Shown here one piece after another: positions 3,484 through 4,256 of a DNA stretch of 64,000 bases (the stretch's first letter is position 1; each line of letters opens with the position of its first letter). The notes beneath the pieces are model-generated. The model did not search any database. It saw only the letters and a program-made list of their open reading frames with translations, and was not told the DNA's origin. This DNA comes from Fistulifera solaris. Taxonomy: Eukaryota. The stretch spans positions 372,001-436,000 of the forward strand of contig AP026135.1 of the NCBI GenBank assembly GCA_030295235.1, read 5' to 3'. A program made the translations under genes and the position numbers.

Positions 3484-4256
3484 CTACGAATTGCTCGGGA
3501 CTTTTTCGCGTCCAATATAGAGTGCTGCAAAGAACAAAGACCACAGCACCAGGGTGACGCTTTGCTGCTGTGACAAGAGCGCAAAAAGGCTGCAGGAATT
3601 CCGCATAGAAACGCTGTTTGCACGTTCATAGTGTTGACTTTTCGTAAAATAGCCCTTGCCGTCTCGGGGTTCTCGATTTTGGATAAACCGTTACCATCGA
3701 TATCCCACAAACCGGCTTGGGCAATGTTTCATAATGCGGTTTCGGCACTTCTCTGGTATCCGTAGGCAAGAAAGAAAGGAATGACCGTCAGGAATCGGAA
3801 TACGTGTCCCGCAAAACCACCATCATCCCCTAAAAAAGTAGCCCACAAGGTATACAGCACCGCCACAAAGTACATGACACGACTCGCTTGTGCTCGACGC
3901 TCTCGTTCATCCGGACCAATGTTGACAAGTTCCAACGTAGCTTGAGCTTTTCGCTGTTCCGCTTCCTCAGCCGATACTGTAACGTATGCATCGAATGCAA
4001 TAGGTCCGTATTTGATAGTTTTCCCCGGTCCAATACCGATGGCGGTCAAATAGGGAGCCATCCAGGCAAAGCTGCCATCATTGACAAACTCGCCCGATGT
4101 TTCATTGACCGGTGGCAACCGCGCTGGTCCTGTCTGATGATGATTCTTGTGCTTTTTCTTACCATGCAGCATAGAATGACGGGTGAAAGGGGCGTGCGGT
4201 ACAAACGCTGCCACCGTTGTCGCGAGAATGGTCAAAACACGCAGTGGGAACCTCAT
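3484..4256 (-). CDS. Probable membrane selenoprotein (MSP-like) with in-frame UGA (Sec) at 3729-3731 and plastid-type presequence
   Basis: ORF 3729..4256 ends in TGA and the same frame continues AAC ATT GCC CAA GCC GGT TTG TGG GAT (SAETAL-U-NIAQAGLWDIDG) into ORF 3360..3710. Adding one base in the A5 run at about 3583-3587 gives a hydrophobic C-terminus, FFALLSQQQSVTLVLWSLFFAALYIGREKVPSNS, ending at TAG 3484-3486. Confidence 0.75.

Follow-up and report, generated by a model that had tools for sequence, protein, structure and literature searches.

An in-frame TGA very probably read as selenocysteine in a predicted membrane protein gene of Fistulifera solaris

Results

The gene and its in-frame TGA

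In this work we have analysed a 64,000-nucleotide (nt) stretch of contig AP026135.1 of Fistulifera solaris (assembly GCA_030295235.1, positions 372,001 to 436,000 of the forward strand), which will be referred to as the window, and within it a minus-strand gene whose reading frame is interrupted by a TGA codon that very probably encodes selenocysteine (Sec). The open reading frame (ORF) that starts at the ATG at 4256 has 175 sense codons and then the TGA at 3731-3729, and past this codon the same frame runs on as NIAQAGLWDIDGNG (in a longer stretch, NIAQAGLWDIDGNGLSKIENPETARAILRKVNTMNVQTAF). In the read-through product the residues around Sec would be SAETAL-U-NIAQAGLWDIDGNGLSK, and the full product would have about 257 amino acids. 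The features of the gene are the following.

4256-4254, minus strand: ATG start codon, from the ORF translation
4203..4256, minus strand: start and signal-peptide-like N-terminus ending in VAA-F (F18), with an AAF motif that may be a diatom-type plastid presequence motif
3732..4256, minus strand: coding sequence (CDS) part 1, codons 1-175, the portion retained in public annotation, identical to the database protein P0224
3729..3731, minus strand: TGA (TCA on the plus strand), codon 176, probably read as selenocysteine according to the comparison with homologues and metagenomes
3585..3728, minus strand: CDS part 2, codons 177-224, where the short NIAQA helix, the loop WDIDGNG, an amphipathic helix and the first part of membrane helix 3 lie
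3583..3587, either strand: homopolymer of five A (plus strand) or five T (minus strand), one base short relative to the reading frame
3487..3582, minus strand: CDS part 3, the 32 final codons in a shifted frame, ALLSQQQSVTLVLWSLFFAALYIGREKVPSNS, which complete helix 3 and encode helix 4
3484..3486, minus strand: TAG stop of the full-length reading, whose GTAGAT context is also found at the loose end of the contig of a second gene copy (see below)
3386..3466, minus strand: hairpin resembling a selenocysteine insertion sequence (SECIS) in the 3' untranslated region (UTR), from the unconstrained minimum-energy fold of 3378-3475

The initial annotation had described two open stretches joined by an in-frame TGA without any need for an intron or a frameshift. 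The junction itself was borne out by homologues that are conserved on both sides and have Cys or TGA at the site and, judged by these homologues, a TGA with such an open frame beyond it is far more than chance. The frame was likewise found to be uninterrupted across the TGA, though not as far as the last 32 codons; the end assigned to the gene, 3484, belongs to a TAG (3486-3484) of a different frame, and the span 3484-4256 measures 773 nt, which is no multiple of 3. A general reassignment of TGA was ruled out because this codon is the stop of 16 of the 27 long ORFs in the window and the commonest ORF end there.

Homologous proteins and their public annotation

Seven proteins were retrieved when residues 50-225 of the read-through product served as the first query. 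Four of them are close relatives (86-98% identity) of 175-179 amino acids that all terminate at ...SAET[AG]L, including the 98% match, GAX28474.1, which is the Fistulifera solaris homeologue and is also 175 amino acids long; the other three are distant relatives (52-55% identity) that continue past the site with a Cys, as in GLCNIAQAGLWDVDG and GLCNIAQAG[LV]WDVDG[NS]GL. The same terminal residue is shared by seven close relatives (P0003-P0005, P0222, P0223 and P0225 from other assemblies, and the named homeologue P0002). The 175-residue ORF of the window is itself present as a complete protein, P0224, in NCBI, UniRef and EukProt, so public annotation ends at the TGA; with P0224 and GAX28474.1 both cut at this point, gene callers have truncated the gene as had been anticipated.

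A profile made from four full-length forms and compared with 1.84 billion cluster representatives matched 385 proteins at E <= 0.001, and the residue at the site was classified in 176 homologues aligned to the profile, with the following result.

Ending exactly before the site: 120 of 176
Reading through with C: 23 of 176
Reading through with W: 13 of 176
Reading through with S: 1 of 176
Not reaching the site: 10 of 176
Starting just after the site: 2 of 176
Other cases: 7 of 176

According to this, 133 of the 157 informative homologues are of the Sec type. The 23 proteins with an aligned Cys, conserved on both sides of it, include P0006, P0007, P0008 and P0015, the last one from the diatom Mayamaea pseudoterrestris; Aureococcus is among the named matches in the family. 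The forms with Trp (P0009, P0011, P0018, P0019 and nine more) seem to derive from a gene caller that used a TGA=Trp code on eukaryotic contigs: P0019 is the same as the translation of the metagenome locus L052, whose DNA has TGA where the protein has W, so the gene call decoded the TGA. In the ESM Atlas only unnamed eukaryotic clusters were matched (scores 0.85-0.87), and a scan of prokaryote genomes, made with one pattern and of limited reach, found no relative.

Two other proteins deserve mention. P0058, a full-length form of 373 amino acids, carries NRAQ in place of NIAQ and, where Sec or Cys would stand, a Ser; it may be a non-catalytic paralogue. P0084, with a predicted length of 5253 amino acids, matches profile positions 157-192 in 27 repeats and looks like the translation of a tandem repeat in which a fragment similar to helix 2, HFFTVIPAFVLVGF, is included.

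The invariant or nearly invariant columns of the family are G174, C/U176, N177, I178, A179, Q180, G182, W184 and D185; they gather at C/U-N-I-A-Q-x-G-x-W-D, and conservation is stronger after the site than before it. This bears on the simplest alternative, namely that the TGA is an ordinary stop, that the protein has 175 residues as annotated and that the downstream frame is not translated. Such a reading agrees with the public annotation and with the frequent use of TGA as an ORF end in the window, but it has to face the Cys homologues that read through, the distribution of conservation and, as described below, the SECIS elements of the relatives, an excess of silent changes after the TGA (seven against one replacement) and a fold model that is confident across the site. 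An ordinary stop is thus already contradicted, and we consider it very improbable.

Metagenome loci with TGA at the site

At least 119 loci on metagenome contigs match the DNA pattern TGA-N-I-A-Q-x-G-x-W-D. As the pattern itself demands TGA, these loci show the abundance of the arrangement and not its frequency, for which the classes of the 176 proteins have to be taken. Among the matches listed, 116 of 119 are members of the family and have TGA at the same site in their DNA, while L041, L100 and L106 look like chance matches; 115 of the 116 family loci are open and conserved on both sides. A protein-pattern scan of metagenomes for the Cys form confirmed nothing.

The loci fall into a diatom-like type with two C-terminal helices, a GC-rich green-alga-like type with one C-terminal helix, and a third type in which DVAGE replaces DVDGNG and which has a His-rich tail. 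In this last lineage (L008, L011, L019, L047 and many identical loci) DVAGE(L/I)EEI stands in place of DVDGNGLSKI and the tail repeats HFMHK(E/D)GSGL; the shortness of the ORF upstream of the TGA, about 53-72 codons, makes an intron likely. L079 has a further stop codon at the position of a conserved Leu just before the Sec codon (...SAKEG*U NIAQ...), which could reflect an error, a pseudogene or the border of an intron.

The T-run and the second gene copy

Beyond F224 (3587-3585) the first frame gives residues that resemble no homologue, and it is the frame of the ORF 3606..3484 that gives ALLSQQQSVTLVLWSLFFAALYIGREKVPSNS and the stop, in agreement with the C-termini of the full-length homologues; a 1-nt shift within the T-run at 3583-3587 is therefore needed to reach 3484. 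This region was compared with four runs of one study, used as Logan contigs, whose kind (RNA or DNA) is a guess. The runs show contigs identical to the window and also a second form that is about 5% diverged and has the replacement changes G76E, A122S and G147S of GAX28474.1, and which consequently represents the second copy from the same organism. All the contigs that cross the T-run (runs X1, X2 and X4; second copy) carry an additional A behind 3582, and with it the frame is restored. The segments 3536-3601 and 3724-3770, which contain the T-run and the TGA, are covered by second-copy contigs only and not by window-identical ones, and 3330-3535 is matched by an identical contig.

The missing T is probably an assembly error. 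An intron in its place was dropped, as the shift is of a single nt within a homopolymer and the additional base is present in the second copy. Elsewhere in the window, pairs of long ORFs in different frames share from a few to 60 nt, at 42421-46753 (minus), 1393-3347 (plus), 57774-59647 (minus), 16848-18045 (plus) and 21131-24330 (plus), which suggests either indel errors in the assembly or real pseudogenes; in one case an NB-ARC ORF (44978-46753) and a downstream TPR ORF (42421-45036, both minus) resemble a single gene split by a frameshift.

An assembly that seems prone to errors raises the question of whether the TGA could be a Cys codon (TGC or TGT) misread in base calling or assembly, all the more as Cys forms exist in the family (23 of 176). 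Against this, the apparent errors are indels rather than substitutions, a second-copy contig in run X1 spans 3729-3731 with the codon unchanged, and seven further close relatives end at the same residue. We regard an error of this kind as the least probable of the explanations considered here, with hardly any weight; the clean TGA fits recoding better than error, just as the initial annotation had argued.

The comparison of the two copies also informs on selection. Before the TGA, window and second copy differ by 22 silent and three replacement codon changes; after it, by seven silent changes and one replacement, two of the silent ones lying in the shifted frame. With about 28% of random changes taken as silent, seven or more silent changes out of eight should arise by chance in fewer than one case per thousand, a figure that is our own estimate. 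This excess implies that the region downstream of the TGA is coding, in a frame that requires six T, and on these codon counts it is under purifying selection.

SECIS elements of the relatives

With a strict SECIS descriptor, which asked for the core together with a helix II of 6 bp or more and a helix I of 7 bp or more, a canonical match was found in 21 of 53 distinct 3' flanks of relatives (13.7 kb), when 1.6 would be expected from the background rate of the window (15 canonical matches per 128 kb). Green-type loci have a form-2 SECIS 40-95 nt past the stop, with GUGA and a long mini-stem, and diatom-type loci have (A)GAAUGAC...NGA hairpins 20-95 nt past the stop; unconstrained folds of these flanks also give the SECIS shape. 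Ostreococcus SECIS elements are described as having a G before the quartet and a long mini-stem (PMC2375036).

Other tools were of little help. Rfam, run on 20 loci at E <= 1, gave no SECIS though several of them have textbook SECIS shapes, so that Rfam is uninformative here, and MAFFT could not align SECIS hairpins that differ in geometry. A covariance model built from four green-type SECIS was dropped as too narrow, as it matched its own sequences and L001 only, and not the hairpin of the window.

A SECIS-like hairpin with a GGA core in the window copy

The hairpin of the window copy starts 17 nt after the TAG stop. Its helix I, GGAACAGGAU/AUCCUGUUCC, has 10 bp plus five further pairs; the internal loop has AAGGAC on the 5' side (AGGA at 3448-3445) and UGAUA on the 3' side (UGAU at 3406-3403), and above it stand helix II, GG(U)CAAC/GUUGCC, and a small apical stem. 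The core is thus GGAC/UGAU, with AGGA where AUGA would be expected, and the relatives examined have AUGA or GUGA. The 5' arm, GCAGAAGGACGG, shows two differences from the arms of L031 and L079, one of them T/G, and the 3' arm shows one difference from that of L021; of 639 window tiles, 8 contain a match to the canonical 12-mer with two mismatches or fewer. Seven GGA-type descriptor matches occur in 128 kb of window sequence, this hairpin being the one with the longest helix I, and the chance that any of 22 descriptor matches would fall within 150 nt after this stop is about 0.03. As an identical contig covers 3330-3535, the G of the core is no obvious sequencing error. A first strict SECIS script had found nothing in the window. 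A canonical AUGA...GA descriptor match at 3037 (minus strand), 447 nt past the stop and antisense inside the neighbouring PPR gene, is probably due to chance, about 0.05 being expected at a rate of 15 per 128 kb.

The core of the Toxoplasma SelT element is GGGA, and the GGA/GA cores of Toxoplasma and Neospora SelT were reportedly efficient, in work ascribed to Novoselov in 2007; a literature search for GGGA with Toxoplasma found nothing further. The SECIS quartet consensus has been given as UGAN/KGAW (PMC3753652) and the UGA/GA core is described as invariable with one exception, the GGA/GA core of SelT in Toxoplasma and Neospora (PMC2647825). The hairpin described here shares with the SelT elements of Toxoplasma gondii and Neospora the G for U of UGA on the 5' side, and its 3' UGAU fits KGAW; it differs from them in being a putative element of a diatom and of another gene family, with an A as the base before the core (AGGA).

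An AGGA core in a SECIS architecture leaves two possibilities, a natural GGA-core SECIS, which would be the second of its kind, or a damaged element. In the latter case the family would be real and the window copy would be a decaying homeologue, in which a true deletion of T and a U-to-G change in the core had disabled Sec insertion, leaving a fragment of at most 175 amino acids and the second copy as the working one. The frameshift in the window sequence would suit such a decay, and so would a core that departs from the AUGA or GUGA of the relatives and the fact that the additional base is seen in every contig spanning the T-run, all of them from the second copy. However, other split ORF pairs such as NB-ARC/TPR point to assembly indels, all the helices of the hairpin are intact with helix I the longest among the window matches, and GGA/GA cores are natural in the SelT genes reported on in PMC2647825. 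Furthermore, seven of the eight codon changes after the TGA are silent, so that any decay must be very recent. On balance we consider decay unlikely, though less so than an ordinary stop or a mistaken Cys codon.

Predicted structure and targeting

AlphaFold2 models were obtained for the Cys homologue P0006 with 37 aligned sequences (mean pLDDT 86.4, above 95 over residues 60-250) and for the 224-residue read-through part of the window protein (mean pLDDT 85.2, 95-97 across the Sec site, residues 160-220). The latter model predicts these elements.

Residues 5-17: N-terminal helix, signal peptide, followed by a disordered stretch
Residues 79-89: small beta-hairpin domain
Residues 96-109: helix, followed by the motif NIGPDERERR
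Residues 115-141 and 158-173: long hydrophobic helices 1 and 2, followed by G-L-U176
Residues 177-181: short helix, followed by the loop WDIDGNGLSKIEN
Residues 197-223: helix 3, with a fourth helix seen in the full-length forms

The product is thus a predicted four-helix membrane protein with Sec (residue 176) just after helix 2. Presequences of the ASAFAP type are plastid-targeting signals in diatoms, and 26 of 37 family members have a Phe in the column of F18, around residue 15-24 after a hydrophobic N-terminus; the green-type members have Arg/Ser/Ala-rich N-terminal extensions in place of this signal. From these features we infer that the protein may be targeted to the plastid in both lineages.

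Comparisons of known folds and sequences gave no close relative. A PDB sequence search returned nothing below E = 0.5, Foldseek against the PDB nothing at E <= 0.001, and a wide VIA-align search only generic helical bundles (best Z 5.9).

The loop after the Sec helix recalls that of EF-hands and dockerins, which follows the twelve-residue pattern D-x-D-x-N-G-x-[ILV]-x-x-x-[DE]. A Ca2+ loop of this kind was rejected: DIDGNGLSKIEN fits positions 1, 3, 5 and 6 only, there is no EF-hand or dockerin Pfam match, dockerin chains appeared in the PDB sequence search only at E = 2-3, and the lineage with DVAGE in place of DVDGNG also counts against it.

The YgaP-like transmembrane domain (PF11127, DUF2892) has N-x-G-x-x-E/D-R-x-x-R, two membrane helices and then a conserved Cys, which is the layout seen in our family. 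It was nevertheless rejected because the window protein has no match at E <= 1 and only one of 37 members reaches E = 0.12, none attaining the Pfam cut-off; the family also differs from it in having a soluble N-domain, one or two more helices and the motif NIAQxGxWD.

SelK and SelS have their Sec near the C-terminus of a disordered cytosolic tail, with one membrane helix. These endoplasmic reticulum (ER) proteins are comparable to the window protein in being small and membrane-anchored with a single Sec and no CxxU pair, whereas here Sec lies between helices 2 and 3 in an invariant motif that is structured, and the presequence suggests a plastid protein; Pfam searches with the window protein and 37 members found no sequence similarity to either.

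The family has a single conserved Cys/Sec, hence no CxxU pair, and the fact that Sec and Cys replace each other at a single invariant position suggests a residue with a catalytic redox role.

Neighbouring genes

Upstream of the gene, 475 nt from its ATG, a divergent ORF at 4731-5561 (plus strand) encodes a PAP_fibrillin (plastid lipid-associated) protein with a signal-peptide-like N-terminus ending in SAF, and the two predicted plastid proteins may share a bidirectional promoter region. On the other side, a convergent PPR-repeat gene (2259-3347, plus strand) ends 39 nt from the foot of the hairpin (3386), so that the two 3' UTRs would have to overlap or abut. The window also contains a complete nuclear rDNA unit, about 5 kb away from the putative selenoprotein gene, at 9460-15304 on the minus strand (LSU 9460-12709, 5.8S 13110-13263 and SSU 13522-15304).

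Discussion

The evidence from homologues and relatives argues that this is very probably a genuine selenoprotein gene in which TGA is recoded as Sec: Cys homologues, TGA loci, proteins that end at the site, SECIS elements in relatives and purifying selection after the TGA all back the recoding that the initial annotation had proposed. Diatom genomes have 20-44 selenoprotein genes and Fistulifera solaris is among the genomes studied (PMC7539508).

Several points weigh against the interpretation as a whole. The window sequence as given is frameshifted ahead of the last 32 codons, and there is no canonical AUGA/GUGA SECIS within the first 258 nt after the stop. Rfam on 2800-4400 at E <= 10 also gave no SECIS, as it did with the clear SECIS of the relatives, no tRNA was found in the 64-kb window, and a function is not supported by Pfam (window protein and 37 members), PDB sequences or known folds.

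A possible sequence of events would be as follows. The mRNA, from the minus strand, would carry UGA as codon 176, and the SECIS hairpin past the TAG would recruit the Sec-insertion machinery, so that the ribosome would insert selenocysteine and continue. The product would have a bipartite plastid presequence, its signal peptide with F at the cleavage site, followed by a small soluble N-domain and four predicted membrane helices. The lone Sec, in the invariant G-L-U-N-I-A-Q-x-G-x-W-D, would directly follow helix 2 and stand at the N-terminal end of a short interfacial helix, probably on the side of the RERR-rich N-flank of helix 1, which would be stromal by the positive-inside rule. In the window copy this scheme would have to accommodate the 1-nt deficit of the T-run, most likely an assembly error, and a SECIS core of AGGA/UGAU (GGA/GA for UGA/GA). 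It is conceivable, though doubtful, that the lone selenol or thiol is the nucleophile of a redox reaction at the membrane interface, linked to peroxide, disulfide or quinone and recycled by a soluble thiol reductant.

MSP was reportedly described as a membrane selenoprotein by Novoselov in 2002. As presented in one source, it is a membrane selenoprotein of Chlamydomonas, Volvox, Ostreococcus and Dictyostelium (PMC2375036), and the identity of our family with MSP, which is based on likeness to descriptions rather than to a reference sequence, has in our opinion slightly better than even chances. Both are predicted membrane proteins with Sec and no assigned function, and the window family occurs in green-alga-like contigs with a SECIS of the Ostreococcus type (G before the quartet, long mini-stem). 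In addition, the family is predominantly of the Sec type (133 of 157), and MSP is stated to be nearly exclusively a Sec form (PMC7539508). On the other hand, Table 2 of PMC2375036 has no MSP for the diatom T. pseudonana, while our family is widespread in diatom-like sequences, and the Dictyostelium MSP, as mentioned there, has two Sec residues against one here. The family could equally be one of the three unnamed 'hypothetical' Ostreococcus selenoproteins that appear in that paper (PMC2375036). No source name of the matched proteins contains MSP, no named green-algal record is among the matches, and a literature search on MSP descriptions found nothing further; an Atlas cluster of 170-residue proteins in which Chlorophyta is the commonest phylum (score 0.85) is a lead only.

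Taking all the parts together, we tentatively propose, as a reading that is possible rather than probable in its entirety, a plastid-membrane selenoprotein family of diatoms, pelagophytes, Mamiellales-like green algae and other marine phytoplankton, truncated or mis-decoded nearly everywhere, whose interfacial Sec would act in an undescribed plastid redox process and whose window copy would insert Sec by means of a GGA/GA-core SECIS.

Diatom selenoproteins and algal membrane selenoproteins of unassigned function were already known, so in this respect the gain is incremental. The family is common in marine algae, and what this work adds is in the first place the recognition of a systematic error in public data, where 120 of 176 family proteins are cut at the Sec codon, 13 have a spurious Trp and the protein set of Fistulifera solaris holds a 175-residue stump. 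Moreover, the family gains a description, with an invariant motif, a confident fold model with no solved relative and a prediction of plastid location. The parts worth testing are this prediction and the GGA-core hairpin, as a candidate natural GGA-core SECIS in a transformable oleaginous diatom lineage leaves the tolerance of the SECIS quartet open to direct test. If true, it would be the second independent GGA/GA-core SECIS after that of the apicomplexan SelT, and the 'invariant' U of the quartet would be dispensable outside Apicomplexa.

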